From: Thermoleophilia bacterium
GTDB taxonomy: Bacteria > Actinomycetota > Thermoleophilia > BMS3ABIN01
DNA length: 64,000 bases
Direction of reading: 5' to 3'
Assembly (NCBI GenBank): GCA_014874265.1
Contig: JACWAM010000018.1
Span: 5,955 to 69,954 of the forward strand
The position numbers were made by a program, and so were the translations under genes. The notes beneath the pieces were generated by a model. It made no database searches, was not told the origin of the DNA, and saw only the letters and a list, made by a program, of their open reading frames with translations. Position 1 is the stretch's first letter. Every line of letters begins with the position of its first letter. This document shows, in pieces, positions 19,539 to 50,295 of the stretch.

Positions 19539-20474
19539 TTAGATATCGCACACCTCATCCATCGGGACGTGGTGAGGCCTTTCCTTGCATAAGTCTACTT
19601 CGCCGGCATAAACCTGGTTTTTGCCGAACTTCTTCGCTTTATACATACGGGCGTCGGCTATCTGCACCAGCCGGTCGGCCAGATCGGCATCGCGGCCGAA
19701 AGTGGCAATTCCAATCGAAACAGTGATGCTGCGCTTGATATTGGGATCGGCAAAGGTCGAGCACCGTTCCTCAATGCTGGCGCGGAGGCGCTCGGCTACC
19801 CGGAATGCGGTCTCAAATTTGCAGCCCAGGATCAGGGTAAACTCCTCGCCGCCGTAGCGGGAGGCGATGTCTTCGCCACGCGCCTCGAGCTGGATTGTCC
19901 GGGCTACTTTCTGGAGCACGTAATCGCCTTCCTGGTGGCCGAACTGGTCGTTGTATTCTTTGAAATCATCAATGTCGAGAAAGAGCACCGTCAGCCGCGT
20001 GCCGTCGGTTTTCAGATTGCTCACTTTATTGACCAGGTAAGTCTGAAAAAAGCCATGTGTGTAGAGATTTGTCAAATCATCGGTAGTGGATTGCCGTCTC
20101 AGTTTGAGGGCTTCCACGTGTTCCGTAGTGAACATATAGTAAAAGCCGGTAACGAAAAGTATCACGAAGACGGCCTCGATGGATTCGTATAACCCTTCGA
20201 TTTCAAGGCCGCCAAGTTCCCGGAGGGCGCCGATGACCTCGGCGATGCCGAAGGTCATGGCCGCCAGGCTGAGAAATAGCCATGATCTTTTTCTGATGTC
20301 GAGGGAGATGCCGGGAAGCACTCTAATGGCGAAATAAAAGGCAACCAGCGCCCCCGTCATGTTAAACACCTCAATCATTGCCGGAAAAAGCTCTTCCTGC
20401 CTTCCGGCCGCTTCGGCAACGTCGCGTCCGCCAAAACCCGCAAGCAGTGCATTTATGTGAAATAAAATACTCAT
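19539..20474 (-). CDS. membrane-anchored diguanylate cyclase (GGDEF)
   Basis: Motifs RYGGEEFTLIL and QEGDYVLQKVA after an N-terminal multi-TM region. Confidence 0.85.
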   Translation of the reverse strand: MSILFHINALLAGFGGRDVAEAAGRQEELFPAMIEVFNMTGALVAFYFAIRVLPGISLDIRKRSWLFLSLAAMTFGIAEVIGALRELGGLEIEGLYESIEAVFVILFVTGFYYMFTTEHVEALKLRRQSTTDDLTNLYTHGFFQTYLVNKVSNLKTDGTRLTVLFLDIDDFKEYNDQFGHQEGDYVLQKVARTIQLEARGEDIASRYGGEEFTLILGCKFETAFRVAERLRASIEERCSTFADPNIKRSITVSIGIATFGRDADLADRLVQIADARMYKAKKFGKNQVYAGEVDLCKERPHHVPMDEVCDI

Positions 20475-20537
20475 TTATTGGCGTTTTTCGTGGCTATGGC
20501 CTGTTTATCGGCTCGCCGGCCTTGTTTGTTAGTTTTT

Positions 20538-23009
20538 TTAAGCGCCCATCCTCATCGCTTCATCGTTTTGACCCTTTTCGCCGGCTGTAATCACGTTAAT
20601 GAAGGCATCGACAACCTTTGGATCAAACTGAGCGCCCTTATTGTTCACCAGCTCGCTCAAGGCTCGCTGGACAGACAGCGCTTTGCGGTAGGGCCGATCG
20701 GACGTCATGGCCTCGTAGGCATCGGCGACAAAAAGGATCCTTGCCCCCAGCGGAATCTCTTCCGCCACCAGGCCGTCGGGATAGCCGCGCCCGTCGTATC
20801 GCTCGTGATGATGACGGACAATGGGCTGTATCGGGAAGGGGATTCCCACCGGCTTGAGGATGCGCTCGCTCAGAACCGGATGTTTCTTAATGATGTGAAA
20901 TTCCTCCAGGCTCAGTTTTCCGGGTTTCCTGAGGATTTCGTCAGGTATGCCGATCTTGCCGACGTCATGCAGATAACCGGCGTAGCGAATCGTGACTACC
21001 TCTTCGCTGCTTAAACCAAGTGACCTGGCGATCGCTTCGCCGTAGAGCGACACTTTCTCGGAGTGACCTCTCGTATAAGTGTCTTTGGCGTCGATTGTCT
21101 CGGCGAGAGACCGGATCGTTCCCACGAATGCTTCCTGAAGGTCATTAAAGATGCGGGAATTCTCGATCGCGATGGCGGCTTCATTTGCGGCGGTGGTCAG
21201 CAGTTCGATCTCATCGGAATTCAGGAGGCGCGGCTCGGCAAAATAGATGCAGATGACTCCGATACTCTCGTCTTTCGCCATCAGTGGCAGAGCTACCAGG
21301 GATGAATAACCCTGGACGGAAGCCATGTGCTTCCACGGCTCATAACCCGGATCGGAGAGAACGTTTTCCACGAAAACCGGTCTTTGCTGCGAGAAGGCAT
21401 CGCCGATCGGACCCTTGTTTAACGGTATTCGCTGCTTCTTGTTGACAGCCCAGATGTACTCGGCCGACAGGTTAAAGCTGGCGACGATACTGAGAAACCG
21501 CCCGCCGGCATCGGGAAGCAGCACGGATGCAAACTGGGCTTCGATCAGGCTGCCGACGCGCATTGCCACCACCCTGATAACGTCCTGATAATTGAGTGTT
21601 GATGTGAAAGCCTGGCTCATATTGTGCAAGGCCGACAGTTCCTGGACGTGCCATTCCGTTTTTTCGTACAGGCGGGCGTTATCGATTGTCACCGCTGCCT
21701 GATCCAGCAGCGTCTGATACAGCTCGATCTTCTTTTCCGAGAGCGGTGTGCGCTCACAACTCTCGACTTCGCCCAGGATAACTACGCCAACGATTTCCTG
21801 CTTCGACTTAAGCGGCAGCAGCACTGCCGCGCGCGTGTCCTGGGTCAAGGCCCATTCTTTTTCATCGGCACTGGGAATAGAAGAAGGGGTATACTTTCTC
21901 AGTATCACGGGTTTTCCAGTTTCCAGCACGGAGCAATGATGTGGGGCTTCCTGCAGGCCGATTTTCTCGCCCAGGCCATAGTTCCATTTGATTTTCCTCG
22001 TGGGCGAAGCGGCTTTTACCGTCAGTGAGCATCCGTGTTGATCAAGCATAGCTATACGGCAATAAGAGACTCTTTGCGAACTGGCAATTTTGTCACATAG
22101 AGTTTGTAAAATCCTGTCAACCTTAAGCGTTGAAGAAACTGCTGCGGCTGTCTCGAACAAAAGGCCGACTTCTTCATCTCTGGTTTTAAGAGATAAGGCC
22201 AGTTTGCGGAATTCTTGCGCCAGATCGCCGAGCTCATCCCGGCGTTTTAACACTGGAGTATGTTCGTAGTCCTCTTCACTCATTTGACTGGTGGCTTTTG
22301 TCAATTGCTTGACCGGCTTGATCAGCATTCTGTTGAGGGCAAAGTATAGCATTATCACCAATGCCAGGAGCGACAGGTTGATGATTATGGCAAACTGTAT
22401 CTGTTGTGATCTAATCAGGTGGTCGCGTTCTGCCGTGTTTAAATAAATCCCGACAGAAGCGATAATCCTGCCGGAATGATCGTGAAGAGACGTGATTGAT
22501 TCTTCACCGAATTGTGTCAGTTTACCCGTGGTGAAATTTGCCGGCTGTATGGTTGCGCCGGTCATTTTTGCGGCAACGGCGCCGGTGGCTGCGGCTGTTG
22601 AAGGCGCCTGGCTGTTGCCGCTGAGAAGAGGGACGGATTCGGCGGCCAGGGCGGGTAAGCCCACATCTGCATGATCGCTGCTGGCAATATTGATAATCCC
22701 GTTTTTCCCGGGGGCGTAAACGGAGATGCGATCAATTTCATGGGCTTTTACCATGACCGAGTCAATCTCGCCCTGCATGTGCTGGGCCAGGGTCATCCCG
22801 TGCATGTAGACAAGGCTGGCTTCCAGGAAGCTGGAGATTGTCTGGGCGCTGTCCTGGTATCTTTTGTTGATACCATCACTTAAAAACCGGGAAGAATAGA
22901 ATGTCAGAACGGAGCCGATTACCAGCACCGCCGCGCAGATTAATATGGACAGCTTGCCCCGCAAGCCGATTTGGGAATTAAAGTTCAAACCTGCCCGCCC
23001 GGATTCCAC
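20538..23009 (-). CDS. HD-GYP phosphodiesterase with periplasmic sensor, HAMP and tandem GAF domains
   Basis: 823 aa with HDVGKIGIPDEIL...HHERYDGRGYPDGL at the C-terminus. Confidence 0.85.
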   Translation of the reverse strand: MESGRAGLNFNSQIGLRGKLSILICAAVLVIGSVLTFYSSRFLSDGINKRYQDSAQTISSFLEASLVYMHGMTLAQHMQGEIDSVMVKAHEIDRISVYAPGKNGIINIASSDHADVGLPALAAESVPLLSGNSQAPSTAAATGAVAAKMTGATIQPANFTTGKLTQFGEESITSLHDHSGRIIASVGIYLNTAERDHLIRSQQIQFAIIINLSLLALVIMLYFALNRMLIKPVKQLTKATSQMSEEDYEHTPVLKRRDELGDLAQEFRKLALSLKTRDEEVGLLFETAAAVSSTLKVDRILQTLCDKIASSQRVSYCRIAMLDQHGCSLTVKAASPTRKIKWNYGLGEKIGLQEAPHHCSVLETGKPVILRKYTPSSIPSADEKEWALTQDTRAAVLLPLKSKQEIVGVVILGEVESCERTPLSEKKIELYQTLLDQAAVTIDNARLYEKTEWHVQELSALHNMSQAFTSTLNYQDVIRVVAMRVGSLIEAQFASVLLPDAGGRFLSIVASFNLSAEYIWAVNKKQRIPLNKGPIGDAFSQQRPVFVENVLSDPGYEPWKHMASVQGYSSLVALPLMAKDESIGVICIYFAEPRLLNSDEIELLTTAANEAAIAIENSRIFNDLQEAFVGTIRSLAETIDAKDTYTRGHSEKVSLYGEAIARSLGLSSEEVVTIRYAGYLHDVGKIGIPDEILRKPGKLSLEEFHIIKKHPVLSERILKPVGIPFPIQPIVRHHHERYDGRGYPDGLVAEEIPLGARILFVADAYEAMTSDRPYRKALSVQRALSELVNNKGAQFDPKVVDAFINVITAGEKGQNDEAMRMGA

Positions 23010-23145
23010 CCGATTTCACCCTAAAATAGTTCCGGCAAGCGCCGTATGTTAGATAATCGGTAGCTGGCGGAAAGGCTTTAGCGCCAAACTTGGATTGGGC
23101 GCTCGCGCCGGATCCGTCCAGGGCTGGCGCCGGCGGGCAGGTGTT

Positions 23146-23535
23146 TTAGACTGTTTCTTTTTTTGCGTGACGGGCGCGGTAATCCTCGATTGCTTTTTGG
23201 AGTCCGTCTGAAGCCAGATTAGAGCAATGCATCTTTTGCGGCGGCAGCCCCCCCAGGGCTTCGGCAACTACCTTTCTGGAGATTTCCTGGGCTTCATCCA
23301 GCGTCTTGCCTTTGGCGAGCTCAGTGACCATGCTGCTGGTAGCAATCGCTGCCCCGCAGCCAAGGGTCTTGAACTTGACGTCGTCGATCCGGTCTTGCTC
23401 CTCGTCCACCTTGATGGTAATGCGCATAACGTCTCCGCATTGCGGATTTCCCACTTCCCCGACTCCATCGGGATTTTCGACCTCGCCCATATTGCGCGGA
23501 TTCTGGAAATGATCCATTACCTTTTCGGTATACAT
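23146..23535 (-). CDS. iscU: Fe-S cluster assembly scaffold IscU/NifU-like
   Basis: MYTEKVMDHFQNPRNMGEV...GNPQCGD...LGCGAAIATSS...HCS. Start chosen at the second Met of the track ORF. Confidence 0.85.
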   Translation of the reverse strand: MYTEKVMDHFQNPRNMGEVENPDGVGEVGNPQCGDVMRITIKVDEEQDRIDDVKFKTLGCGAAIATSSMVTELAKGKTLDEAQEISRKVVAEALGGLPPQKMHCSNLASDGLQKAIEDYRARHAKKETV

Positions 23536-23588
23536 ATTCCATCTCTCCTTTATCAAATGCTAATAAATGAACAATTGGCAATCATGAG

Positions 23589-24830
23589 TCAGCTCGCGGC
23601 TTCGCAGTCACATCCCTGAGAGGAGTTCCCCGCCGAGCACTTCTTATTGCCGCGCTTGTAGACGGGCGACATGCTCCTGAGCCGCTCGGCGACGGCCGCG
23701 ATAGTCTCCAGGGCATAATCCACATCTTCCTGAGTATCTGCCTTGGCCATCGTAATCCTCACCGAGCCATGCGCGAGCTCTGCCGGCAGGCCCAGCGCCA
23801 GCAGGATGTGCGATGGCTCCAGACTCCCTGACACGCAGGCGGAGCCGGTAGAGACATAGACGGGCCTGGCGTCACCGGCCGTCGGGTATGACAGCGACAG
23901 CATGATCGACTCGCCTTCTATCCCCTCGATGGAGAAGTTGACATTGCCCGGCAGTCGCTCGGTCCGGTGCCCGTTGATGCGGATGTCATCAATGTTACCC
24001 TCAACCCAGTCAAAGATGTGGTTCCTGAGTCCGGCAAGCCGCGTCGCCTCCGCTTCGAGAGAGTGGCGGGCAATCTCTGACGCCTTACCCATGCCGACAA
24101 TCCCGGGGACGTTATGCGTGCCGGCGCGACGCTTCTTTTCCTGAGTGCCGCCGTGCAGGAGAGGCGTTATCCTGACGCCGTGTCTGATGTACATGGCTCC
24201 GACACCCTTAGGACCATAGAACTTATGCGCCGATGATGAAAGCAGGTCAACCCCAAGATGATTGACATCGACAGGGATGTGTCCAACGGTCTGGGCGGCG
24301 TTTACGTGAAAGATCACGCCCTTTTCCGAGGTTATTTTGCCGATCGCGGTGATTGGCTGGATGGTGCCGATCTCGTGGTTGGCGTGAACGATGGAAACAA
24401 GCACGGTGTCATCCCGGATAGCGGCGGCAACCGCTTCGGGATTGACCACGCCGTCGCTGTCAGTAGGAAGGTAGGTTACTTCCCAGCCTTTTTTCTCGAG
24501 GTAACGCAGAGGCATCAGGATTGAATGATGCTCCGCCACATCGGTGATGATGTGCCGGCCCTTGGATTCCAGCGCGTCTGCAACTCCCTTGATCGCCCAG
24601 TTGTTGCTTTCAGTGGCGCCGCTGGTAAAAAAAATGTCCTTTTGATCGGCGCCGATCAGGTCCGCAAAACTCTGCCTTGCCGCATCGATTGCCTGTTTTG
24701 CCTGGGAGCCCATCGAGTAGAGAGTGGCCGGACTGCCAAATTTCTCTGAAAGCCAGGGCTCCATCGCGTCGATTACTTCTGGGTCCGCCCGGGTAGTGGC
24801 GGCGTTGTCTAAGAATATGGCGTTTTTCAT
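23589..24830 (-). CDS. iscS: cysteine desulfurase (IscS/NifS)
   Basis: 413 aa with the PLP lysine region SSSAHKFYGPKGVG and the SGSACVS active-site Cys loop. Confidence 0.9.
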   Translation of the reverse strand: MKNAIFLDNAATTRADPEVIDAMEPWLSEKFGSPATLYSMGSQAKQAIDAARQSFADLIGADQKDIFFTSGATESNNWAIKGVADALESKGRHIITDVAEHHSILMPLRYLEKKGWEVTYLPTDSDGVVNPEAVAAAIRDDTVLVSIVHANHEIGTIQPITAIGKITSEKGVIFHVNAAQTVGHIPVDVNHLGVDLLSSSAHKFYGPKGVGAMYIRHGVRITPLLHGGTQEKKRRAGTHNVPGIVGMGKASEIARHSLEAEATRLAGLRNHIFDWVEGNIDDIRINGHRTERLPGNVNFSIEGIEGESIMLSLSYPTAGDARPVYVSTGSACVSGSLEPSHILLALGLPAELAHGSVRITMAKADTQEDVDYALETIAAVAERLRSMSPVYKRGNKKCSAGNSSQGCDCEAAS

Positions 24831-24890
24831 TTGGCGTTTCTCCCGGTTTCACTCGGACCGGCCCCGGGGCCGGCAGAGCGTTTGTTTATC

Positions 24891-25565
24891 TCATACCCTT
24901 TTTCTGATCATGAATTTCATCTGGCCGCCGAATTCTTCCCGGCAGATAAACTCGTTTCCAGTCCCAGTGCACCATGCCGGTATATCAGCTTTGGAACCTT
25001 CATCGTCGGCCCACACTTCCAGGATCTCCCGGTGCCGCAAATTCCTCATCTCCTCCGCAATCCTGACAATCGGCAGCGGGCAGGAGTACCCAATACAGTC
25101 GAGCTTTCGGCTCGGGGTTTCGCCGGCCGCCGGGCCTGTTTTCAATCCCGGGCCGAGCCGGCCGGAGATTACATCTTTCAGGCTGGTTTTGCCCAGCACA
25201 TCTTCGCTCACGCTTTGCAGCCTTGACCAGACCCCGGCCAGAGTGCAGCCATCATGGAAATCGCAGCCATCAACTGCTCCTCCGGCGCCGCAACTTGTAG
25301 GAACAACCGGGCCTTGCAAAACATTGACGACCTTGAGCAGGCTGATTTGCTCGGGAGCCTTTCCCAGCAAATAACCTCCCGCTGGTCCCCGTGTGCTTTT
25401 CAGCAGGCCGCCACCCACCAAAGCCCTGAGAACCTGTGTCAGAAACGGCAAAGGTATCCGCTGCCGCTCAGCAATGCCGGTTCGACCAACCGGCTCGCTG
25501 CCTTCGCGAGTAGCAATATCTATCAGGGCCCGCAGGCCGTATTCGCTTTTTGATGAAATCAGCAC
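24891..25565 (-). CDS. Rrf2-family (IscR-like) transcriptional regulator fused to a C-terminal TusA-like sulfur-carrier domain
   Basis: Rrf2 N-terminus (V)LISSKSEYGLRALIDIA with Cys ligands SCGAGGAVDGCDFHDGC. C-terminus LDCIGYSCPLPIVRIAEEM...ILEVWADDEGSKADIPAWC...FMIRK aligns with E. coli TusA (CPxP motif). Start uncertain: GTG 25565 or ATG 25604. Confidence 0.65.
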   Translation of the reverse strand: MLISSKSEYGLRALIDIATREGSEPVGRTGIAERQRIPLPFLTQVLRALVGGGLLKSTRGPAGGYLLGKAPEQISLLKVVNVLQGPVVPTSCGAGGAVDGCDFHDGCTLAGVWSRLQSVSEDVLGKTSLKDVISGRLGPGLKTGPAAGETPSRKLDCIGYSCPLPIVRIAEEMRNLRHREILEVWADDEGSKADIPAWCTGTGNEFICREEFGGQMKFMIRKRV

Positions 25566-25869
25566 GGGATAAAGTTTAATAATGTAGACCGTGTGAGTCA
25601 ACATTAATCAGGCCATTTATACCCGGTGGCTTCATTGGTCAAACAGTTTACTGTCTGATAAGACAGCTAAATATAAGGGATCCTTATGTTGGAATAATGT
25701 GTTTTTTTTGCGGGTGATTTATCAATCGGCATGGCTGGGGGCTGATTTTGGCCCGGGGAAAACTCCCGGATTATCCAGTTCTTTGCCAAGGCCTGACGCG
25801 ATATTCCCAAAGCCGGGCCAGCCCGGAGTCTGTCCAGCAGTTATCCCGCTGTGGCAGGCAGAACTTTTG

Positions 25870-26652
25870 TTAATGGATGATCTTGAAAGCGCGGTCGAAA
25901 TTGGCGCTGATATACGCGGCCAGTTCGTCGATTGGTTCATCGCGGAGACGGGAAACCTCCTCGATCACCTGCCTGACCAGGGCAGGACGGTTAGGTTTTC
26001 CCCGGAAAGGCGTTGGAGCAAGGTACGGGGAATCAGTCTCAGTCAGCAGCAGTTCCGGCGGGATAAGCCGGACTGCCGCTTTTAACGCAGTTGCATTTTT
26101 AAAAGTGACATTTCCCGCCACTGACATGAAATAGCCGCGCCGGATGCATTCCTCTATCTGGACGACAAGCGAAAAGCAGTGAAGCACCACGGTGATGCCT
26201 TCGGCACGGTCTTTTAGAATCTCGAGGGTTTTGGCGCCCGCCTCACGAGTGTGCACCATTAACGTCAGGCCCGTTTCCCGGGCCAGCTCAATCTGACGAT
26301 GGAATGCATCTTTCTGGACAGACGGCGGGGAAAGGTTGCGATAAAAATCCAGTCCGGTCTCGCCAATAGCGACCGTACGGGGCAAACCGGCAAGCTCTCT
26401 TAATTCCTCAAACGCAGTGCTATCTAGCTTTTCGGCATAGTGAGGATGAACGCCAACGGACGCCCAAACCTTTTCATGACGTGCAGCGAGATCGGCCGCC
26501 GCCCGGCTGCTGGCCATATCGATACCCACCGCCAGCATTTTTTCGAGGCCGGCGGAAATGGATTCCTCGACTCCGGCGTCAAGGTCTGGCAGCAGGTCGA
26601 AATGTGCGTGCGCGTCGACTAATGCCGGCCGGCTGTCTGATCTACCGCTCAA
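25870..26652 (-). CDS. tatD: TatD-family metal-dependent hydrolase
   Basis: 260 aa, LVDAHAHFD...HCF...TDSPYL. Confidence 0.85.
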   Translation of the reverse strand: MSGRSDSRPALVDAHAHFDLLPDLDAGVEESISAGLEKMLAVGIDMASSRAAADLAARHEKVWASVGVHPHYAEKLDSTAFEELRELAGLPRTVAIGETGLDFYRNLSPPSVQKDAFHRQIELARETGLTLMVHTREAGAKTLEILKDRAEGITVVLHCFSLVVQIEECIRRGYFMSVAGNVTFKNATALKAAVRLIPPELLLTETDSPYLAPTPFRGKPNRPALVRQVIEEVSRLRDEPIDELAAYISANFDRAFKIIH

Positions 26653-26673
26653 CGCTTCTACCTATAAAAGCCT

Positions 26674-28197
26674 TTAACTTCGCTCGATCTTAGGGAATAG
26701 CGGTTCTCCGGCGATAACCCTGCCGCCGGTTTTAAGTCCGCCCCACAATATCCTCTGCTGCAATCCGCCTGTTTCCGTGGCTTGACCCAGGCGGCTGAGA
26801 ATCTCAGTCGATGTTTCCGGCATGAAGGATTGCAGTAGCAGGGCGCAGATCCTTAAGCCTTCGGCCAGGTTATAAAGAACCAGCTCCAGCCTGCTTGCGG
26901 CAGTTTCATCCTTCGCCAGCTTCCATGGCGCTTCATCCTCAATATATTTGTTGAGTCTTCGTACCAGGACCCAGATCTTTTCCAGGGCGCCGGTAAGATC
27001 TACGCGGCTCATCGCGGCGGTTACGTCAGATGTGACGGATCCGGCCAGCGAGGCAATATCCGACTTGGAACTCTCGGTTGCCGCCGGCACCAGTCCGCCG
27101 CCGAATTTTTCGATCATTGTGGTTGTCCGGCTGACCAGGTTCCCCAGATCATTGGCAAGTTCGGAATTATAACGGGCTTCGAGGCCTTCTATCGACACGA
27201 CGCCATCCTGGCCAAAGGTGACCTCCCGAAAGCAGTAGAACCGGAAGGCGTCCGTTCCGTAACGGTTGATGATGTCGAACGGATCAAGAACATTTCCGCG
27301 TGTCTTGCTCATCTTCTGCCCGCCCATGAGAAGGTAACCATGGATAAACAAGTGCTCAGGCAGTTTATTGCCGGCAGCCATCAGCAGCGCCGGCCAGATG
27401 ACCGCGTGAAATTTGAGGATATCTTTTGCCATCATGTGGTAACTTGCGGGCCAGAATTCAGGTGTAAGATCATGATCGCCGGCATACTCAAGCGCGCTTA
27501 GATAGTTCAGAAGGGCATCGACCCAGACATAAACAACCTGGCTTTCATCCCAGGGGATCGGTATCCCCCATTTCAAAGTGGCGCGGCTGATGCTGATATC
27601 TTCCAGCCCGCCAGTGATGAAGCTTCTGGCCTCGTTAAAACGGCTCTGCGGCTTGACAAACTCTGGATGTTTATCAAAATGTTCAATCAGCCTTGATTGA
27701 TAGGCCGAGAGGCGGAAGAAGTAATTTTCTTCCTCAACCTCATCGCAGACGGTGCCGTGGTCGGGGCACTTCCCCGCGAGCAGGTCCTTGGGCGCATAAA
27801 ATGCCTCGCAGGCGGGGCAATAAAGCCCTTTGTACGATTTCAAATAAATATCGCCGCGGTCATATAGTTTGCTAAGAAAATTTTGCACGGATTGCTCATG
27901 TTCGGAATCCGTCGTCCGGATAAAGAAATCGTTACTGGCGTTGACTCGCTGAGCCAGCTCCTGGAACCGTTTCACCATCTCGTTTACATGCTCCAGCGGC
28001 GACAGGCCACGGCGCTCTGCCGCCCGCGCCGCCGGATTGCCGTGTTCGTCGGTGCCAGTAAGGAAAAAAACATCATCACCCAACTGCCGGTGATAGCGCG
28101 CCAGAATATCGGCGGCAATCGTCGTATAGGCGTTGCCGATATGCGGCACATCGTTGACATAGTAGATGGGAGTTGTAATGTAAAAATGATTTGTCAT
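26674..28197 (-). CDS. metG: methionine--tRNA ligase (short form, no C-terminal tRNA-binding domain)
   Basis: FYITTPIYYVNDVPHIGNAYTT and KMSKTRGN motifs with a CPxC Zn knuckle. Start trimmed to MTNHFYITT. Confidence 0.9.
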   Translation of the reverse strand: MTNHFYITTPIYYVNDVPHIGNAYTTIAADILARYHRQLGDDVFFLTGTDEHGNPAARAAERRGLSPLEHVNEMVKRFQELAQRVNASNDFFIRTTDSEHEQSVQNFLSKLYDRGDIYLKSYKGLYCPACEAFYAPKDLLAGKCPDHGTVCDEVEEENYFFRLSAYQSRLIEHFDKHPEFVKPQSRFNEARSFITGGLEDISISRATLKWGIPIPWDESQVVYVWVDALLNYLSALEYAGDHDLTPEFWPASYHMMAKDILKFHAVIWPALLMAAGNKLPEHLFIHGYLLMGGQKMSKTRGNVLDPFDIINRYGTDAFRFYCFREVTFGQDGVVSIEGLEARYNSELANDLGNLVSRTTTMIEKFGGGLVPAATESSKSDIASLAGSVTSDVTAAMSRVDLTGALEKIWVLVRRLNKYIEDEAPWKLAKDETAASRLELVLYNLAEGLRICALLLQSFMPETSTEILSRLGQATETGGLQQRILWGGLKTGGRVIAGEPLFPKIERS

Positions 28198-28341
28198 GAC
28201 GCGGATCAACCCACGCTTTCTTGCTTGCCTTCTGAACCGGCACCACTATGAAAATACAAGCAGAGCCAAGCAATGGGCGGCACGAACGCTTTGCGCTATT
28301 ATTCACTCGTAGCGGATATATTAGCAGCTGCCGGTAATGAG

Positions 28342-29391
28342 TCAAATGGGCAACGCCGGCGCAGCCTCTTTGACGGTCAAGACGCCGGTAGCGATTCCAG
28401 CGGTTGCCATCAGCAGTGCGGCTCCTATTGAAGCGGCCAGGCGGATCGGCCAGCCCCGGCTGGAAGCTCCAGATTCAGTGGCAGCTTTTATGGCTTGCGG
28501 CTCTTTAATGGAAGAAGAGGCGAAGGCTGGTGGGAAAACCACGGTACCGGAATCAGGTTCGATTTCCGGTGGCGTGGTTGAAACTACCGATTTTACCGAC
28601 AAGGCTGCTTCCCGGCTGGCGGAATCCGCCGCCTCTGATACGGCGCGAGAATGTGACGGCTCCGCCATCGCCGGTATCTTGTGCGCCGCACTGCTTACGC
28701 CGGTGGCGCGCGCAGTTACTCCCGCGCCGGAATTTGCCGTTGTGCCTGAAAGGTGGTTGACGCCCGCCGGTGGCGTCGGCGGCGAGCCTGCATTCGGAAC
28801 CGGCGCCGGTTCCGGGACTGCACCCGGGGCCTGACCCGTCGGGGACGAGTTTGTTTGGTGATCGGCGGGAATATCTTTCAGATACAAGAGAGGATTATAG
28901 TAATGGTCAAATGCGTCACCGGCGCTCCCGGTCTTAATGCCGAAGTGTATCGCCGGCCCGATGCTGGAAGCAATCGTTTCTCCCTGGGAGACCTTCTGGC
29001 TGGGCGCCACCCGAACTCCCGTCAGATGCAGATAAGTACTGATCAGGCCGCCGGGATGCGCGATTGAAACAGTGGCGCCGCCCCCTTCGGCGGGAGTGTA
29101 TCCGGTAAACAAAACGGTGCCCGCGGCAGCCGCCTTGACTTCGCTGCCTCGGGGAGCGGCAATGTCAACACCGCGGTGTCCCTTGCCCGTTAAGCAATTG
29201 AGACTCCAGGTATTTGTGATATTTGCCTCGACGGGCCAGATAACGCCATCGGGCGGAAGCGGCGGACTGGATCCACAAAATGTCACAGCCATAGCGGCTT
29301 CGGGCAGGCAATACAAAAAACCAGTAAAAAATAACAGCATCCACGTCCGCTTCCACATGTTCGCCTCCGCTTCATCAGCAACCGTTGTCAT
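28342..29391 (-). CDS. M23/LytM-family peptidase, secreted
   Basis: HRGVDIAAPRGSEVKAAAAGTV...IAHPGGLISTYLHL with an N-terminal TM/signal segment and a Pro/Ala/Ser-rich linker. Confidence 0.8.
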   Translation of the reverse strand: MTTVADEAEANMWKRTWMLLFFTGFLYCLPEAAMAVTFCGSSPPLPPDGVIWPVEANITNTWSLNCLTGKGHRGVDIAAPRGSEVKAAAAGTVLFTGYTPAEGGGATVSIAHPGGLISTYLHLTGVRVAPSQKVSQGETIASSIGPAIHFGIKTGSAGDAFDHYYNPLLYLKDIPADHQTNSSPTGQAPGAVPEPAPVPNAGSPPTPPAGVNHLSGTTANSGAGVTARATGVSSAAHKIPAMAEPSHSRAVSEAADSASREAALSVKSVVSTTPPEIEPDSGTVVFPPAFASSSIKEPQAIKAATESGASSRGWPIRLAASIGAALLMATAGIATGVLTVKEAAPALPI

Positions 29392-29497
29392 AATAGACGA
29401 CGAATGAAACCTATCAAAGATATGCTGTAATTACAATAGGGATTAACGGGCTAACGCAAAGCAAATGTGCAAATAGCGGTATATTTTAGCGGTCCAT

Positions 29498-30973
29498 TTA
29501 GCCAAGAATCTCTTTAACGACCGCGCTGTCGCTGAACGGAACCGGTCCAGCCGCCAGCATTTGTTTTGTTTCATGGCCCTTTCCGGCAATGAGAACCAGG
29601 TCGCCGTCCCCGGCCGACTTAAGCGCAGTTTCGATGGCAAGGCGCCTGTCTTCGACCCGCAGGTAATTTCCACCGGACTCTGCCAGACCCGGCTCGGTCT
29701 CATCCATAATCTGCCCAGCAGGCTCCTGGTAGCAATCGTCAGTAGTTAATATGGCTAGGTCAGCCATCATGCCGGCAATCCGGCCCATGCCGGGGCGTTT
29801 GTCACGGTCGCGTTCACCCGGGCAACCAAAGACGAGGATCAGATTCCGCTCCGTCATCCGCCGCGCCGCCGCCAGAGCCCGCTCCAGCCCGTCTTCGTTG
29901 TGGGCGTAATCAACAACAACCGTGAACGGGGCACCTGCGTCGATAAAGTCGAATCTACCGGGGACGCGGGACAGCTGCCCGATGCCGGCCGTTATTGATT
30001 GCAAGGGAACGCCGAGCTGACAGGCCGCTGCCGCGGCGGCCATCGCGTTGTCCAGATTGTGGCGCCCCGGCAGCTGAAGCCGCGCCGGCGCCGATCCGTC
30101 AGGAGTCACCAGCTCAAACGTGTAGCCGCGACCAATTTCCCGGATGTCTACGGCAGTCACGCTGGCGTCGTTAACCCAGCCAAATCCAAGCGCTTCTCCT
30201 TCTTTTAGCTCCCGGTACAGCCGCCGGCCATACTCGCCGTCGAGGCATATGGCGGCCTGCGGCCTCCTGATTTCTTGACCGGGGCAGGTTTGACCCTCTT
30301 CCGGGATAAACAGTTTCCTCTTGGTCAGAAAGTAGGTTTCCATATCCTGGTGCAGGTCCAGGTGGTCCCGGGTCAGATTAGTGAAAACAGCCACGTCGAA
30401 AGCAACGCAGGCAGAGCGTTTGAGATCGATCCCGTGTGATGATACCTCCAGCGTCGCAAAGCCGGCGCCTGCCGCGACCATTTCCGCCAGCGCCCGTTGC
30501 AGATCAGGCGACTCGGGAGTGGTCCGCGCGGCCGGAGCAACCTTGCTGGCGATCCGGCACTCAACGCCGCCGATGAGCCCAGTCAGGTTTCCGGCAGCCC
30601 GCAGAATGCTGTCCAGCAGAAACGTGGTAGTCGTTTTTCCATTGGTCCCGGTAACGCCGGTGACCGTCAGCCGGCGGGACGGCCGGCCATAAAAATTAGC
30701 AGACGCGGCCGCCATGGCCAGGCGGGTATCGCGAACCTGGACCTGCGGCAGGCCGAGCCCCTCCACCCAGCGTTCGGTAACGATGGCGCCGGTGCCGCGC
30801 GCCCGGGCGTCGGCAACATAAGAATGGCCGTCAGTCTTGAATCCGGGCAGGGCAAAAAAAAGTGCGCCCGGTTCGACCTGGCGCGAATCATAGGTAATGG
30901 CTGAGATTTCCGGCTCGGGGTCCACTGTCTGGCGGACAATGAGACTGACGGGAAGAATTTTCGAGAGCTTCAT
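29498..30973 (-). CDS. murE: UDP-N-acetylmuramoyl-L-alanyl-D-glutamate--2,6-diaminopimelate ligase
   Basis: 491 aa Mur ligase with GTNGKTTT P-loop and MurE-type N-terminus. Confidence 0.85.
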   Translation of the reverse strand: MKLSKILPVSLIVRQTVDPEPEISAITYDSRQVEPGALFFALPGFKTDGHSYVADARARGTGAIVTERWVEGLGLPQVQVRDTRLAMAAASANFYGRPSRRLTVTGVTGTNGKTTTTFLLDSILRAAGNLTGLIGGVECRIASKVAPAARTTPESPDLQRALAEMVAAGAGFATLEVSSHGIDLKRSACVAFDVAVFTNLTRDHLDLHQDMETYFLTKRKLFIPEEGQTCPGQEIRRPQAAICLDGEYGRRLYRELKEGEALGFGWVNDASVTAVDIREIGRGYTFELVTPDGSAPARLQLPGRHNLDNAMAAAAAACQLGVPLQSITAGIGQLSRVPGRFDFIDAGAPFTVVVDYAHNEDGLERALAAARRMTERNLILVFGCPGERDRDKRPGMGRIAGMMADLAILTTDDCYQEPAGQIMDETEPGLAESGGNYLRVEDRRLAIETALKSAGDGDLVLIAGKGHETKQMLAAGPVPFSDSAVVKEILG

Positions 30974-37389: not shown

Positions 37390-37830
37390 ATGAACATTTC
37401 AGCTAAGAGCAAGTATGCGGTACGAGCCCTGGTTGAACTGGCGCAGCACAATGGCGGAGCCCCGGTGCCGATTGGTGACATTGCGTCCAGGCGTGACATC
37501 CCCCTTCAGTTCTTGGAACAGCTTTTTTCTAGTCTCCGTAAAGCCGGAATCTTAAACAGCCATCGTGGCGTCCGTGGCGGTTTCAGTTTTAAAAAGCTTC
37601 CGGAAGACGTCAGCGTGCTCGATGTGGTGGAAATTCTTGACGGGAATATTGCTCCCGCTGCCTGCACAATCGGCGGCGAATGCGACAAGCTGAGCCGTTG
37701 CGCGGTTCGCGACGTCTGGGTTGACGCCAAAAAAAGCCTAGAACAGGCGCTTGGCGCCTCCAGCATCGCCGAGCTTGCCGACCGGGAGCAGGCGATGCAG
37801 GAGAATGTCCGGGAGATGTATTACATCTAA
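37390..37830 (+). CDS. Rrf2-family transcriptional regulator (CymR/IscR-like, 3 Cys)
   Basis: MNISAKSKYAVRALVELA... with Cys ligands CTIGGECDKLSRC. Confidence 0.8.
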   Translation: MNISAKSKYAVRALVELAQHNGGAPVPIGDIASRRDIPLQFLEQLFSSLRKAGILNSHRGVRGGFSFKKLPEDVSVLDVVEILDGNIAPAACTIGGECDKLSRCAVRDVWVDAKKSLEQALGASSIAELADREQAMQENVREMYYI

Positions 37831-37867
37831 AGTCGCGGCAAGGTTTTACTGTTAAGGAGGTTGGGTT

Positions 37868-38824
37868 ATGAGAACTGTCGAAACCGGGGCAAAAACCATA
37901 GTTGATGATGTAACTGAACTGATAGGCAACACGCCGATGATCAGGTTACGGCGGCTTGGCGGGGATCAGGCCGGCATGGTCGTGGCGAAGCTTGAGAGTT
38001 TTAATCCGGGTGGCAGCGTCAAGGACCGGATCGGGATTGCCATGATCGAAGCGGCCGAGCACGACGGCAAGATCGTGCCCGGCCAGACCGTCATAATCGA
38101 ACCCACTAGCGGCAACACCGGCATCGCGCTGGCGTTCGTCTGCGCCGCCAAAGGTTACCGTTTAATCCTGACCATGCCCGAAACTATGAGTATTGAGCGG
38201 CGGTCCCTTCTGAAGGCGTTCGGCGCCGAGCTGATTCTAACCCCGGGCCCGGGGGGCATGCGTGGAGCAGTGGAAAAAGCCGAGGAGTTAATCGGCCTTT
38301 ATGATGACGCATTCGTGCCGCAGCAGTTCAATAATCCCGCCAATCCAGAGGTGCATCGGCAATCGACCGCAGAGGAAATCTGGCGTGACACGCAGGGCGC
38401 CGTCGACATCTTTGTGTCGGCCGTCGGTACCGGCGGCACCATTACGGGTGTTGGCGAAGTGATCAAGGAAAGAAAACCCTCCGCGAGGGTAATCGCCGTG
38501 GAGCCCAAGGCGTCGCCGGTGCTTTCCGGCGGCGAAGCCGGACCGCACCGGATTCAGGGCATCGGCGCGGGCTTTGTTCCGGATGTGCTCAATACCGGAA
38601 TTTATGATGAGGTTGTCCAGGTGAGTAATGAAGAGGCCGAGCAGATGGCCCGGCGGCTGGCGCTCGAGGAAGGACTGCTCTGCGGTATCTCCTCAGGGGC
38701 GGCTGCTTTTGGAGCGCTCACGGTTGCGCGCCGGCCCGAAAATAAGGATAAAATGACGGTAGTCCTTCTTCCGGACACGGGAGAACGATATCTGACCACG
38801 CAATTGTTTGGCGATGCCAGATAG
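37868..38824 (+). CDS. cysK: cysteine synthase (CysK/CysM-type PLP enzyme)
   Basis: 318 aa with PLP lysine GGSVKDR and SGNTG. CysK vs CysM cannot be assigned. Confidence 0.85.
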
Positions 38825-38877
38825 GAACGGCGCCCGGGCAGGCGGTTTCTTCAAGGCAATTCCTGCGGGAGGTAGAT

Positions 38878-39117
38878 TTGAATATCAAGGAGGATTTCCT
38901 GCTGGACGCACGCGGTCTCAAGTGCCCCATGCCTTCGGTAAAGACCGCCCTCGCGCTTGAGCAGCTGGGCGGGGGCGGGATTGTCAAGGTGATGATTGAC
39001 GATCCGGTAAGTAAAAAGGATCTGCCGGCGTGGGTGCGCGGAAACGGCCACCAGGTGTTAGGCATTGACGACCGGGATGGTTTTGTTGAGGTATACGTTA
39101 AAAAATCCGGAGGTTAG
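38878..39117 (+). CDS. tusA: TusA-like sulfurtransferase
   Basis: 79 aa, LDARGLKCPMPSVKTALALEQL, CPxP motif. Confidence 0.8.
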   Translation: MNIKEDFLLDARGLKCPMPSVKTALALEQLGGGGIVKVMIDDPVSKKDLPAWVRGNGHQVLGIDDRDGFVEVYVKKSGG

Positions 39118-39118
39118 C

Positions 39119-39448
39119 ATGAATCAACACCACCCCGGTTCAAAAAAGGAAGACAAGCTGTTAGAATTAGAAGACAGGCCGCCGTTGGCGGCTTCTGCTC
39201 TTCATCTGGTCGTGCAAGGGCGGGAGAAGGTTTATCTTGGTCCCCGGGATATGCGGTCTTTGCTGGAAGCTCTGGGCGAGAACCTGTCATACGCCAATGT
39301 GCGTCTCAACGGCACGGTCCTAAACAGGCGGGATTTTGAAAATATCCCTTTGCAAGACGGGGACAGAGTAGATTTCCTTTATTTTATGGGAGGGGGAAGT
39401 TGTTCGATCTCTCCGAAGCTGAAATCGAGCGTTACTCCAGGCATATAA
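39119..39448 (+). CDS. ThiS/MoaD/CysO-like sulfur-carrier protein with an encoded C-terminal tail beyond Gly-Gly
   Basis: ...VRLNGTVLNRRDFENIPLQDGDRVDFLYFMGGG-SCSISPKLKSSVTPGI*. The beta-grasp core ends GGG and the frame runs 18 codons further, overlapping the moeB start. GGAGG RBS precedes ATG 39119. Confidence 0.6.
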   Translation: MNQHHPGSKKEDKLLELEDRPPLAASALHLVVQGREKVYLGPRDMRSLLEALGENLSYANVRLNGTVLNRRDFENIPLQDGDRVDFLYFMGGGSCSISPKLKSSVTPGI

Positions 39449-40230
39449 TCCTGCCCGAGCTGGGTGGCGCGGGGCAGCAGAAACTGAAACAGGCGAGCGT
39501 CCTTGTGGTTGGCGCCGGCGGGCTTGGATCTCCGGCGCTGCTTTACCTTACCGCGGCGGGAGTGGGCCGGATTGGCGTCATCGAGGACGACGTTGTCGAT
39601 TTGACCAATCTTCAGCGCCAGGTTCTACATGGCACCTCTGACGTGGGACGGCCGAAGGTGGTCAGCGCCAGCGAGACGATGAAACAGCTCAACCCGCATG
39701 TCCAGATCGATGTTTACAATCAACGCCTCACCAAGGAAAACATTTTTGACATCATTGAAAAATATGATGTTATTGTCGACGGCGTTGATAACTTTCCGAC
39801 GCGTTACCTTTTAAACGACGCCTGCGTCATGAAGCAGAAAACGCTGGTGGAGGGCGGCATACTCCGCTTTATGGGACTGATCATGAGTATTCGCGGTGGC
39901 GAGACCGCCTGCTACCGCTGCGTTTTTGAGGATCCACCTCCGCCCGGAGCTGTGCCCAGTTGCGCTGAAGCTGGAGTCCTGGGCGCGGTCGCCGGCGTGG
40001 TCGGGACCATGCAGGCCACCGAAGTGCTCAAAATTCTGACTGGATTCGGGCAGCCGCTTTATGATCGGCTACTCCAATTCGACGCCGAGGAGCTCCGTTT
40101 CCACGAGGTTAAGGCAAGGCGCAATCCAAAATGCCCGGTTTGCGGCGAAGATCCCAGTATTACCGAGCTCATCGAGTATGAATACACCTGTGAAACCCAG
40201 ACTCCGCTAGCTGATGCCGGGGGGGATTAA
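39400..40230 (+). CDS. ThiF/MoeB-type E1-like adenylyltransferase (no rhodanese domain)
   Basis: TTG start after RBS ggaggggga. (M)FDLSEAEIERYSRHIILPELGGAGQQKL...VGAGGLGSP with C-terminal CxxC...CPVC Zn site. Confidence 0.8.
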   Translation: MFDLSEAEIERYSRHIILPELGGAGQQKLKQASVLVVGAGGLGSPALLYLTAAGVGRIGVIEDDVVDLTNLQRQVLHGTSDVGRPKVVSASETMKQLNPHVQIDVYNQRLTKENIFDIIEKYDVIVDGVDNFPTRYLLNDACVMKQKTLVEGGILRFMGLIMSIRGGETACYRCVFEDPPPPGAVPSCAEAGVLGAVAGVVGTMQATEVLKILTGFGQPLYDRLLQFDAEELRFHEVKARRNPKCPVCGEDPSITELIEYEYTCETQTPLADAGGD

Positions 40231-40651
40231 TCTTACCCGCTCCCAGCTCGAGGCTGTTTTTGAGCACGCGAAGCGGCAGCAGCCTGAAGAAGCATGCGGT
40301 ATTCTCGCGGGCGATCCGGACGGAAGCGTGCGCCGCGTCTTTTTGATGGAGAACGCCGAGCACAGCTCGATCCTGTATATGATGGACTCGACCGAGCAGT
40401 TCGAGGTTTTTGATCAGATGGAAAAGGATGGCCTTGAACTGGTCGCCATCTTTCATTCTCACCCCCACTCTCCCGCCTTTCCCTCTGCCCGCGACTTGGA
40501 ACTGGCTTTCTATCCGGAATCGCTATACCTGATCGTGTCTCTCATGGATGACGAGCCTCAGTATCATGCCTTCAGGCTCGCCAGAGGCCAGGTTGCTGAA
40601 GCCCCGCTGGTTATTCTGGATGATATAAAAGAGAGCCTTGATGAAGCCTGA
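40214..40651 (+). CDS. JAMM/MPN+ metalloprotease (Mec+/CysO-processing type)
   Basis: EACGIL...HSHPHSPAFPSARD, the JAMM motif. Confidence 0.75.
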   Translation: MPGGINLTRSQLEAVFEHAKRQQPEEACGILAGDPDGSVRRVFLMENAEHSSILYMMDSTEQFEVFDQMEKDGLELVAIFHSHPHSPAFPSARDLELAFYPESLYLIVSLMDDEPQYHAFRLARGQVAEAPLVILDDIKESLDEA

Positions 40652-41477
40652 AACCGGGCCGGCTGGCGCTGCAAATGATTTAAACCGGCTCATTCTTGCC
40701 ATCAAGCCGCTGGATAGCCTGGCGGTGGGATTCTCCGGCGGAGTCGATTCATCGGTAGTGGTAGCCGCTGCGGTTGAAGCGTTGGGAGCGGGAAATGTGG
40801 TGGCCGTTACCTCAGCCTCGGAGACCTTGCCGGCCCGGGAGATGAAAGCAGCCCGCCATCTGGCCCGGAAAATCGGATGCCGCCACGAAATCATCCGGAC
40901 CGGCGAGCTTGAGATGAATGAGTTTGCCGCCAACCCTCCCGACCGCTGTTACTATTGCAAAACGGAGCTGTGGAAACAGGTTAGGAAAATCGCTTCGGAA
41001 TTGGGGCTAAAGAATATTGCTGACGGCGTCAACGCCTCCGATTTGGGAGACTTCCGTCCCGGGATCAGGGCCAGCGACGAATGCGGCGTCGCGCACCCGC
41101 TCGCGGCGATCGGCGCCGGCAAGGAGCAGGTCCGTGGCATCGCCCGGGAGCTGGGCCTTCCCAACTGGGGCAAGCCCGCCGAGGCATGCCTTTCATCCCG
41201 CTTTCCTTACGGTAACACCATTACGGCCGCCGGCCTCAAGCGCGTGGAGCGGGCCGAGGAACTGCTCAAGGAGAACGGGTTTAGGCAGCTGCGCGTTAGA
41301 GACCACGGGGACATCGCCCGCATTGAGGTGCCGCCAGAGGTGTTTCATAAACTGACGAATGGCAGCAGATCAGAAATTGTAAAAGGACTCAAGGAACTTG
41401 GTTATAGCTACGTTACCGTTGACCTGGAAGGGTTCCGGAGTGGCAGCATGAACGAAACGCTAAAAAACAGTTCATAG
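40638..41477 (+). CDS. LarE-like PP-loop ATP pyrophosphatase (TIGR00268 family)
   Basis: SGGVDSS PP-loop, then DRCYYCK...ACLSSRFPYG. Confidence 0.65.
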   Translation: MMKPETGPAGAANDLNRLILAIKPLDSLAVGFSGGVDSSVVVAAAVEALGAGNVVAVTSASETLPAREMKAARHLARKIGCRHEIIRTGELEMNEFAANPPDRCYYCKTELWKQVRKIASELGLKNIADGVNASDLGDFRPGIRASDECGVAHPLAAIGAGKEQVRGIARELGLPNWGKPAEACLSSRFPYGNTITAAGLKRVERAEELLKENGFRQLRVRDHGDIARIEVPPEVFHKLTNGSRSEIVKGLKELGYSYVTVDLEGFRSGSMNETLKNSS

Positions 41478-49819: not shown

Positions 49820-50287
49820 TCAGATAAACAGGCTCATGTCGGCATCGACGGCGTAATCAAGGAACGCGCCGGCGCCACAGGTCGGCTCTACTTCATCAAT
49901 CAGATCTTCGGGATTAATGCCCATGATGTCGAGCGTCAGCTGACAGGGCCACATTTTGACACCGGTTTCATGACATATCTCGATAAATTCAGGGATAGAC
50001 GGCGTGTTTGACTTCTTGATCATATCCTTCATCATCTTGGTTGCCATCGCCGTCATGCCAGGAAGCATACCAACAATGTTCGGCACGGACACTGGCATCG
50101 CTGGATTGGCGATTGGCGACACCTTTAGGTTGGCATATTTCTTTTTGTTGACAATATCCAGCCCGTAAAAAGTGAAAAAGATGCCGCATTCCATGTCCAG
50201 CGCCGCGGCGGTGCTAGCCAGGATAAATACCGGGTACGCCATATCCAGCGTTCCCTTGGACGCGATAATCGCTAAACGCTTAGCCAT
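49820..50287 (-). CDS. DsrE/DsrF-like family protein (COG2044-type)
   Basis: 155 aa, MAKRLAIIASKGTLDMAYPVFILASTAAALDMECGIFFTFYGL. Confidence 0.65.
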   Translation of the reverse strand: MAKRLAIIASKGTLDMAYPVFILASTAAALDMECGIFFTFYGLDIVNKKKYANLKVSPIANPAMPVSVPNIVGMLPGMTAMATKMMKDMIKKSNTPSIPEFIEICHETGVKMWPCQLTLDIMGINPEDLIDEVEPTCGAGAFLDYAVDADMSLFI

Positions 50288-50295
50288 CTAGTAGC

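Follow-up and report, generated by a model that had tools for sequence, protein, structure and literature searches.

The locus and the fusion gene

The 64,000-nucleotide (nt) stretch of contig JACWAM010000018.1 (Thermoleophilia bacterium, assembly GCA_014874265.1) that was analyzed for this report, and that is referred to here as the window, carries on its minus strand a gene in which an Rrf2-type transcriptional regulator and a TusA-like sulfur-carrier domain are joined in one reading frame. The gene stands directly upstream of, and on the same strand as, the genes for a cysteine desulfurase (iscS) and an iron-sulfur (Fe-S) cluster scaffold (iscU), a position that a first-pass annotation of the window had recognized and that is kept in 25/25 related loci. 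The genes and protein segments with which we are mainly concerned are as follows.

24891..25565, minus strand: Rrf2-TusA fusion gene, 224 amino acids (aa), GTG start at 25565, TGA stop at 24891..24893 (open reading frame (ORF) listing, Pfam and homologue starts)
25161..25565, minus strand: Rrf2 domain, aa 1-135, with winged helix-turn-helix (HTH), Cys loop and invariant Glu8
25290..25292, 25263..25265 and 25245..25247, minus strand: C92, C101 and C107 of the Rrf2 Cys loop (alignment)
about 25110..25160, minus strand: flexible linker, aa 136-152 (identity and predicted local distance difference test, pLDDT)
24894..25109, minus strand: TusA domain, aa 153-224 (Pfam, alignment, Foldseek)
25095..25097, 25080..25082 and 24969..24971, minus strand: TusA cysteines C157, acceptor C162 (in CPLP) and C199, all invariant
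23589..24830, minus strand: iscS, NifS/IscS-type class I cysteine desulfurase (Aminotran_5 and NifS/IscS models)
23592..23657, minus strand: C-terminal tail of IscS, KRGNKKC-x8-CDCEAAS, with three cysteines (alignment of desulfurases)
23146..23556, minus strand: iscU, clostridial-type NifU/IscU scaffold (NifU_N, E 1.7e-52; TIGR03419, NifU_clost, 200.9 bits against a cut-off of 187.9)

The ORF listing and its translation show that the frame at 24891..25604 (minus strand) is free of internal stops. The 237-aa form of its product matches the Pfam models for Rrf2 (aa 16-147, E 4.1e-33) and TusA (aa 167-235, E 5.2e-21), both far over the gathering scores, and NCBIfam concurs with Pfam on this protein at the superfamily level, so that the single ORF joining the two domains, as described in the first-pass annotation, is borne out. 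As to its size, which had been put at 224-237 aa, the shorter form was retained and the longer one rejected. Homologues that are 220-226 aa long open with the residues MLISSKSEYG, which correspond to the GTG at 25565 in the window, and an equivalent Met start is found in 80 full-length clusters. We consider the 237-aa form spurious because the ATG at 25604 from which it would be read falls within the conserved AATGTTGACT promoter/operator block, and the GTG is almost certainly the true start.

Among 80 members of the family the mean pairwise identity is 76% in the TusA domain, 65% in the Rrf2 domain and 15% in the linker, which varies between 11 and 40 aa in length, a pattern that points to two selected domains joined by a flexible tether. 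Our placement of the tether differs from that given earlier (about 25090..25150). In an AlphaFold2 (AF2) model of the monomer both domains fold well, the middle of the linker (aa 139-147) has a pLDDT below 50, and the Cys loop (aa 89-111) is also low in pLDDT, as would be expected because the cluster site is empty in such a model. A Foldseek search with the AF2 model found no solved chain that spans both domains.

Distribution and synteny of the fusion family

A search of 5.8 billion proteins returned about 80 clusters that carry both domains and exhibit 50-92% identity to the query. The fusion recurs in 17 species-representative genomes, all of them from uncultivated Actinomycetota labelled Thermoleophilia, Gaiellales or Actinomycetes and sampled from the subsurface, groundwater or sediment, as well as at 8 metagenome loci, and its closest relative (94% identity) is encoded by an Actinomycetota metagenome-assembled genome (MAG; L001). 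The gene order metG-tatD-fusion-iscS-iscU-HD-GYP is found in every fusion-bearing species genome, and iscS follows the fusion directly in 17/17 genome loci and in 8/8 of the metagenome loci having upstream sequence. When 1.84 billion representatives were searched exhaustively with HMMER, the family collapsed into one 50%-identity cluster (P0008), and among the best 150 matches there was no other protein combining Rrf2 with TusA, the rest being Rrf2-only or long multi-TusA proteins. For these reasons it looks, from the sequences compared, as though the fusion arose once and in one clade.

The same survey bears on the suspicion, raised in the first-pass annotation, that a missed stop or a frameshift between the domains might have caused two genes to be read as one. 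What looks like a frameshift within the TusA domain cuts one family member (P0080) short, and we found nothing else that would favor such an assembly or annotation artefact. The frame in the window is uninterrupted, and the same collinear architecture is shared by the 80 full-length clusters from independent assemblies, by the 17 species genomes and by the 8 metagenome contigs, so that the chance of an artefact is negligible.

Nine residues do not vary among the 80 full-length sequences, namely C92, C101 and C107 in the Rrf2 loop, C157, C162 and C199 in the TusA domain, and in addition D156, D194 and W198. By this measure the Rrf2 and TusA domains are both under selection. The databases annotate the family as "Rrf2 family transcriptional regulator" and nothing more, and a full-text literature search found no description of an Rrf2-TusA fusion. 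Although the fusion is genuine, conserved and amenable to experiment, it is restricted to a single uncultivated actinobacterial clade, and the function discussed for it below is one that we infer.

The Rrf2 domain

Membership in the Rrf2 superfamily is clear from PF02082 (114.8 bits against a threshold of 30) and TIGR00738 (111.7 against 73.3), and Foldseek matched the N-terminal part of the model to the winged-helix proteins CymR, IscR, RsrR and NsrR at E-values of 1e-9 to 1e-6, in agreement with the Rrf2 domain and N-terminal HTH recognized previously. The more specific label "IscR-type" had to be abandoned. The protein scores far below the cut-offs of the IscR equivalog models (TIGR02010, 77.5 bits against 207.55; NF008110, 67.2 against 275), and in the column that corresponds to the IscR ligand His107 the 80 members have Ala (46), Val (33) or Ser (1); an IscR orthologue is ruled out on both counts. 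The Fe-S ligand motif that had been written as C-x7-C-x5-C does consist of three clustered cysteines, but their spacing in the window is C-x8-C-x5-C, and within the family 50 members have x8 as the first interval and 27 have x9.

All 80 members have Glu at residue 8, and HMMER aligns the protein collinearly with NsrR and RsrR, starting at residue 6-8. In those two proteins a cluster ligand is contributed by residue 8 of the partner subunit, Asp8 in NsrR and Glu8 in RsrR. The protein is probably a dimeric Rrf2 repressor with an Fe-S cluster on Cys92, Cys101 and Cys107, and because its Glu8 is collinear with these residues of NsrR and RsrR, the Glu8 of the partner subunit is likely to be the fourth ligand of the cluster. 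The resemblance to NsrR (5N07) and RsrR (6HSD) is otherwise limited, since overall similarity is low (E 1e-6 to 3e-5) and these proteins control other regulons and have no added domain.

The relationship to IscR (E. coli, 4HF0 and 4HF1; Thermincola potens, 4CIC) is of a different kind. Both proteins have the Rrf2 winged-helix fold with three clustered cysteines past the wing, both are encoded by the first gene of an iscS-iscU unit and are probably autoregulatory, and the T. potens IscR is the best match of the fusion among solved structures by sequence (E 8.4e-21). The ligands of IscR are Cys92, Cys98, Cys104 and His107 (C-x5-C-x5-C-x2-H), whereas the fusion has C-x8/9-C-x5-C without the His and with the invariant Glu8, and IscR lacks the C-terminal TusA domain. 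By its context, the fusion would be the functional counterpart of IscR.

The TusA domain

The C-terminal domain belongs to the TusA/SirA family (PF01206, 74.7 bits against 28.6) and superimposes on TusA in the crystal complex with IscS (3LVJ_C) with a root-mean-square deviation of 1.2 A over 73 residues and a template-modelling (TM) score of 0.89 relative to the target. The end-to-end correspondence with E. coli TusA and the Cys-Pro-x-Pro motif and ADD/IRK blocks that had been reported for this domain were all confirmed: residues 8-80 of the E. coli protein are aligned, and the motifs CPLP, WADDEG and IRK are all found in the window protein. C162, P163, P165 and D194 are invariant, D188 is present in 79/80 members, and the possibility, entertained in the first-pass annotation, that homologues might lack the CPxP cysteine is dispelled by the presence of C162 in all 80. 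The domain is the most conserved segment of the fusion protein.

The cysteine Cys19 of E. coli TusA takes sulfur from Cys328 of IscS with the assistance of Asp45 and Asp51 (PMC2854127), and TusA is also a competitor of IscU for IscS, the two altering the activity of the enzyme (PMC11302665). The equivalents of Cys19, Asp45, Asp51 and Cys56 in the structures of the IscS-TusA complex (3LVJ, 3LVK; PMC2854127) are kept in the fused domain, and Phe55 is replaced by Trp. The fused domain differs from E. coli TusA in having the extra invariant Cys157, a tether to a DNA-binding dimer and several changed residues at the interface with IscS. It also falls short of the equivalog cut-off for the TusA of the tRNA 2-thiouridine relay (NF001423, 43.8 bits against 78), and no tusBCDE or mnmA genes were found in the gene neighborhood of the fusion.

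The IscS tail and a lineage without the TusA domain

The product of the window's iscS reaches 500 bits with the NifS model and 446 with the IscS model, under the equivalog cut-off in each case, and ends in a cysteine-rich tail that appears to be peculiar to the desulfurases linked to the fusion. The tail, KRGxK[KQ]C-x7-8-C[DE]CE, is present on the fusion-linked IscS of the window and of 16/16 complete loci (from the set L001-L017) and is missing from the IscS proteins of E. coli, of three operons in which tusA is a separate gene (L051, L055 and L019; see below) and of two loci with a TusA-less Rrf2 regulator (L053/L054). A DNA-pattern scan of 241 million metagenome records found the tail motifs at 13 loci (L059-L071), and all 8 of those with upstream sequence carry the fusion; a protein search with the C-terminal 66 residues of IscS as query gave only three fragments and was uninformative.

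The TusA-less regulator (P0082; L053 5001..5492 and L054, two independent assemblies) is 163 aa long, stops after the linker and has the same synteny as the fusion. Its Rrf2 part is 86% identical to that of the fused protein P0065, which nests it within the fusion clade, and judged by this nesting it represents a lineage that lost the TusA domain secondarily. Lacking both the TusA domain and the tail, this lineage constitutes a natural control for any proposal that the two act together.

One such proposal is that the three cysteines of TusA and the three of the IscS tail make up a common binding site for an Fe-S cluster or a metal, in a trigger-enzyme complex that sequesters the regulator. Each partner has three invariant cysteines, and their co-occurrence is strict, with both being absent from the lineage without the TusA domain. 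However, the correlation between tail and TusA domain amounts to a single phylogenetic event, and we consider a shared site of this kind very unlikely. To our knowledge, no TusA-family protein binds a cluster, which also counts against it.

Origins of the two halves

Proteins resembling both halves of the fusion occur as separate neighbors in other genomes. The unfused Rrf2 proteins that come closest to the fusion, P0083 and P0085, are 51-52% identical to it and are encoded by the first genes of operons of the order rrf2-cysteine desulfurase-DrsE_2-tusA, and the TusA proteins of the rrf2-iscS-DrsE_2-tusA operons are 44-46% identical to the fused domain and have the same three cysteines in the pattern LDCxGxxCPxP...PAWC. 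A Dehalococcoidales MAG (L019) has iscS-iscU-tusA with the same three-cysteine TusA. These operons of L019 and of the Actinomycetota loci L051 and L055 hold the closest relatives of both halves together with a cysteine desulfurase, and the Rrf2 proteins of the unfused relatives have the same Cys loop and Glu8 as the fusion. They differ from the fusion locus in that the genes are separate, the IscS is without the Cys tail and only 48-49% identical, and, in L051 and L055, DrsE_2 stands in for IscU. Since the fused parts are operon partners elsewhere, and always with an IscS-type enzyme, the relationship is of the type referred to as a Rosetta stone. The LDC cysteine is found in 3/16 TusA-like ORFs of related loci, which are only those that share a locus with IscS (L019, L051 and L055); the position is Ala, Thr or Val in the other 13/16.

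Such operons also bring to mind a simpler explanation, whereby the fused TusA would be a metabolic carrier from IscS to DsrE-like proteins, tRNA thiolation or cofactor synthesis, joined to the regulator for co-expression only and without regulatory meaning. That tusA is an ordinary member of the rrf2-iscS-DrsE_2-tusA or iscS-iscU-tusA operons of relatives, that a nested lineage dropped the TusA domain and kept the regulator and the operon, and that the linker is unconstrained would all be natural outcomes of a passive fusion. On the other hand, a carrier on a DNA-bound dimer at regulator copy number would make a poor bulk sulfur shuttle, the fused TusA is the most conserved part of the protein clade-wide, the co-evolving tail of IscS suggests a dedicated partnership, and no fewer than two stand-alone TusA genes and a DrsE_2 gene lie within 25 kb in this genome. 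The stand-alone genes of the window are:

38878..39117: stand-alone TusA
50296..50580, minus strand: stand-alone TusA (CCPMP), followed by DrsE_2, the pair spanning 49820..50580

These carry the CPxP cysteine only, without the LDC and PAWC cysteines. Because they exist, the fused copy would not be needed as a general carrier, and the comparison argues for a specialized role of the fused TusA rather than for its being the cell's general carrier. On balance, we think it rather unlikely that the fusion is a passive one.

A specialized role might also consist of sensing reactive sulfur species. The cysteines C157, C162 and C199 might take up sulfane sulfur independently of IscS, and a persulfide or polysulfide bridge among them might release the repressor, in a mode resembling that of CstR, SqrR and the SoxR-type proteins but on an Rrf2 scaffold. 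The likeness to these repressors and to BigR could lie in the mode of action only, since the protein matches no families other than Rrf2 and TusA and thus lacks homology to the CsoR and ArsR scaffolds, with their sensing Cys pair, on which such persulfide-sensing repressors are built. Three invariant cysteines in a domain whose chemistry is persulfide carriage would suit a sensor of this kind, and Rrf2 and TusA genes are repeatedly linked in the window. There is a precedent in the literature for the idea of a TusA-type carrier delivering sulfur to a transcriptional repressor, which has been proposed for SoxR and sHdrR of Hyphomicrobium denitrificans (PMC11582611); that hand-off would occur in trans and to ArsR-type repressors of sulfur oxidation genes, and it is considered unproven by its authors. 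Several observations speak against reactive-sulfur sensing by the fusion: the genes that it appears to regulate are for Fe-S assembly and not for sulfide detoxification or oxidation, a second sensor would be redundant beside the three-Cys cluster site that the Rrf2 domain has retained, a variable and disordered linker makes allosteric transmission unlikely, and the LDC cysteine follows linkage to IscS and not to sulfur-oxidation genes. We therefore regard such a sensor as improbable.

The promoter and candidate operator region

The 300-bp spacer between tatD and the regulator gene contains the following elements.

25573..25601, minus strand: sigmaA-type promoter, TTGACT-N17-TAAACT (promoter scan; TGTTGACT block conserved in 18/18 loci)
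25578..25608, minus strand: dyad ATTAATGT-N15-ACATTATT, the operator candidate, flanking the -35 element on both sides, its right arm reaching as far as the first base of the -10 element
25619..25644, minus strand: second promoter-like motif, GTTTGA-N14-GGGTAT, upstream of the sigmaA-type promoter
25651..25666, minus strand: palindrome CTGTCTGATAAGACAG (CTGTCT-TATC-AGACAG), the operator candidate of the first-pass annotation, just upstream of the sigmaB/SigF-like motif
25673..25687, minus strand: palindrome ATAAGG-ATC-CCTTAT

A block of the form wTAAwTGTTGACT-N-ACAwTAT-TAAAnT is conserved in this spacer in all 18 loci, and TTGACT-17-TAAACT was the sole sigma-70-like site in a scan of 1.3 kb (24700..26000). 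The GTG start lies 7 nt past the -10 element in the window (25563..25578), and in 12/18 loci the start codon is 7-9 nt past it. Because the start is so near to the -10 element and no Shine-Dalgarno sequence is apparent in the window, the mRNA of the regulator is probably leaderless.

The arms of the dyad at 25578..25608 have a mean complementarity of 5.9/8 in the 18 loci when they are spaced by 15 nt, as compared to 2.1-3.4 at the other spacers between 9 and 21, and the half-sites co-vary between subclades (AATTGT/ACAATT versus TAATGT/ACATTA). The core pattern of the dyad occurs once in the 64-kb window. Repressor bound there would cover both the -35 element and the spacer, and a conserved dyad at this place on the promoter agrees with a role in repression. 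The dyad is unlike the type 1 motif of IscR. A larger 13-N7-13 palindrome centered on TGACT was also considered; it is strong in L006, L007 and L016 and absent from the subclade of the window, and the 8-N15-8 dyad was preferred over it.

The palindrome put forward in the first-pass annotation is present at 25651..25666 as described, but it was rejected as the first choice for an Rrf2 operator. Its right arm (GGAyAG / rGAyrG) is kept in about 13/18 loci, 10-12 nt upstream of GTTT, its left arm is found in roughly half of the loci and the spacing between the arms varies from 4 to 16 nt, so that only the right half is broadly conserved and the dyad at 25578..25608 is the better candidate. The adjacent motif GTTTNN-N13-14-GGGWA occurs at a fixed position in 13/18 loci, where shuffled sequences average 0.008 loci. 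We take GTTTGA-N14-GGGTAT to fit the promoter consensus for sigmaB/SigF, and its conservation suggests an input of a stress sigma factor into isc expression. An Rfam scan of 20000..30000 with E-values up to 1 gave zero matches, which indicates that the conserved upstream elements do not belong to a known RNA family. As a separate observation, no fewer than 8 related loci have a counterpart of the palindrome at 25673..25687, in the form ATAAG-N3-7-CTTAT.

A proposed regulatory circuit

The first-pass annotation had suggested that fusing TusA to an Fe-S-sensing repressor would couple the sensing of sulfur flux directly to the control of the isc operon, and such coupling is plausible and fits the new comparative data. 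The form of it that we favor, and which we regard as evenly balanced between being right and wrong, is that the fusion is an Fe-S-sensing autorepressor of iscS-iscU whose tethered TusA domain docks on the cognate IscS. The dimeric repressor would carry its cluster on Cys92, Cys101, Cys107 and the Glu8 of the partner subunit and would bind the 31-bp dyad on its own sigmaA-type promoter when clusters are plentiful, thereby shutting off the three-gene unit of regulator, iscS and iscU. The TusA domain, on its flexible linker of 11-40 residues, would most likely dock on the IscS encoded by the same operon, as free TusA does in E. coli, and take a persulfide on Cys162. The regulator would in this way be physically connected with the donor of sulfur, and its sensor cluster might be loaded, or reported on, where it is assembled; moreover, the TusA domain could compete with IscU, in which case the availability of the repressor would track the workload of IscS. 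The three-Cys tail of the fusion-linked IscS would be a likely partner or relay for the TusA domain.

The proposal is favored by the selection on both domains, the TusA fold with its retained equivalents of Cys19, Asp45 and Asp51, the fixed synteny and strong gene linkage with iscS, the Rosetta-stone relationship, the LDC cysteine that goes with IscS, the other TusA genes of the genome, the tail of IscS, the co-varying dyad on the only sigma-70-type promoter, and the competition for IscS in E. coli. The comparisons establish the architecture with its conservation and synteny, the conserved promoter and dyad, the joint distribution with the tail and the operon linkage of the halves in relatives; cluster binding, repression, docking, persulfide transfer and regulatory coupling are what we propose on this basis. 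A number of observations weigh against this proposal. The AF2 model of the monomer yields no usable arrangement of the two domains (predicted TM score 0.52). The interface that is known from the E. coli complex is only partly kept on the TusA side, where the equivalents of E21, M24, M25, R27, F58 and M59 differ and that of R31 is Arg or Lys in 22/30 sequences and Met or Ile in the others; on the IscS side W45 is replaced by Ser, E49 by Gln and R220 by His, and D52, R55 and a basic residue at 237 are kept. The pairs R27-E49, F58-W45 and E21-R220 are thereby lost on both sides, and given such mixed conservation we have not counted the interface in support of docking. The Fe-S cluster is predicted from the conserved cysteines only, and the operator from conservation only. 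The lineage that lost the TusA domain shows that the Rrf2 part can persist without it. Finally, the correlation between the tail and the TusA domain, although perfect, is suggestive only, because it reflects one clade with one gain and one loss.

A more elaborate version of the docking proposal can be envisioned, in which the fusion and IscS form a dedicated sensor complex. The TusA domain with its three cysteines (C157, C162 and C199) would engage the three-Cys tail of IscS, either by relaying persulfide or polysulfide or by sharing with it a site for an Fe-S cluster or a metal, and the occupancy of IscS would decide whether the repressor sits on DNA. If true, this would be a trigger-enzyme circuit that reads the mobilization of sulfur beside the classical cluster readout by the Rrf2 site, but we would give it little chance of being correct.

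The circuit that we favor addresses an unsettled issue, which is how cells apportion the sulfur mobilized by IscS to Fe-S assembly and to their other pathways. For E. coli, it is debated how TusA, IscU and IscS are linked to isc expression, and the link is an indirect one (PMC11302665, PMC11302051). In the clade described here a TusA module has been covalently joined to the regulator of a minimal iscS-iscU system, and a matching Cys-rich tail has apparently been added to the enzyme. With its three proteins and one promoter, the system is compact and therefore suited to testing in vitro whether a sulfur-carrier domain feeds information or sulfur to an Fe-S-sensing repressor.

Other features of the operon and the window

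The window contains additional genes related to those of the fusion operon and several elements that adjoin it.

37390..37830, plus strand: second Rrf2 gene, heading a CysK/M-TusA-ThiS-ThiF-JAB cluster
37390..41477, plus strand: sulfur cluster with PALP (CysK/CysM-like), TusA, ThiS-like carrier, ThiF/MoeB-like E1, Prok-JAB and PP-loop ATPase
54722..55138, minus strand: third Rrf2-family gene
24846..24874, minus strand: GC-rich perfect hairpin CCGGCCCCGGGGCCGG, about -21 kcal/mol, without a T-run, between the regulator stop and iscS
19539..23009, minus strand: HAMP-GAF-GAF-HD-GYP protein, 3' of iscU

The cluster at 37390..41477 looks like a unit for thiocarboxylate-dependent (CysO/Mec-type) cysteine synthesis that includes TusA, and it is another instance of an operon linkage between Rrf2 and TusA. 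An ORF at 48445..49719 (plus strand), beside the TusA-DrsE_2 pair, is ThiC-like by eye only. Within the fusion operon, the hairpin at 24846..24874 may set the ratio at which the regulator and the enzyme are expressed; it is common to the window and L001, with similar hairpins in a few other loci, and is not universal. The iscS gene has a ribosome-binding site that can be read as GGGAG or GGAGG. Downstream of the operon, each of the 16 genome loci long enough to show it has the HD-GYP protein after iscU, followed in the window by a GGDEF protein, so that a cyclic di-GMP module is fixed beside the isc unit.

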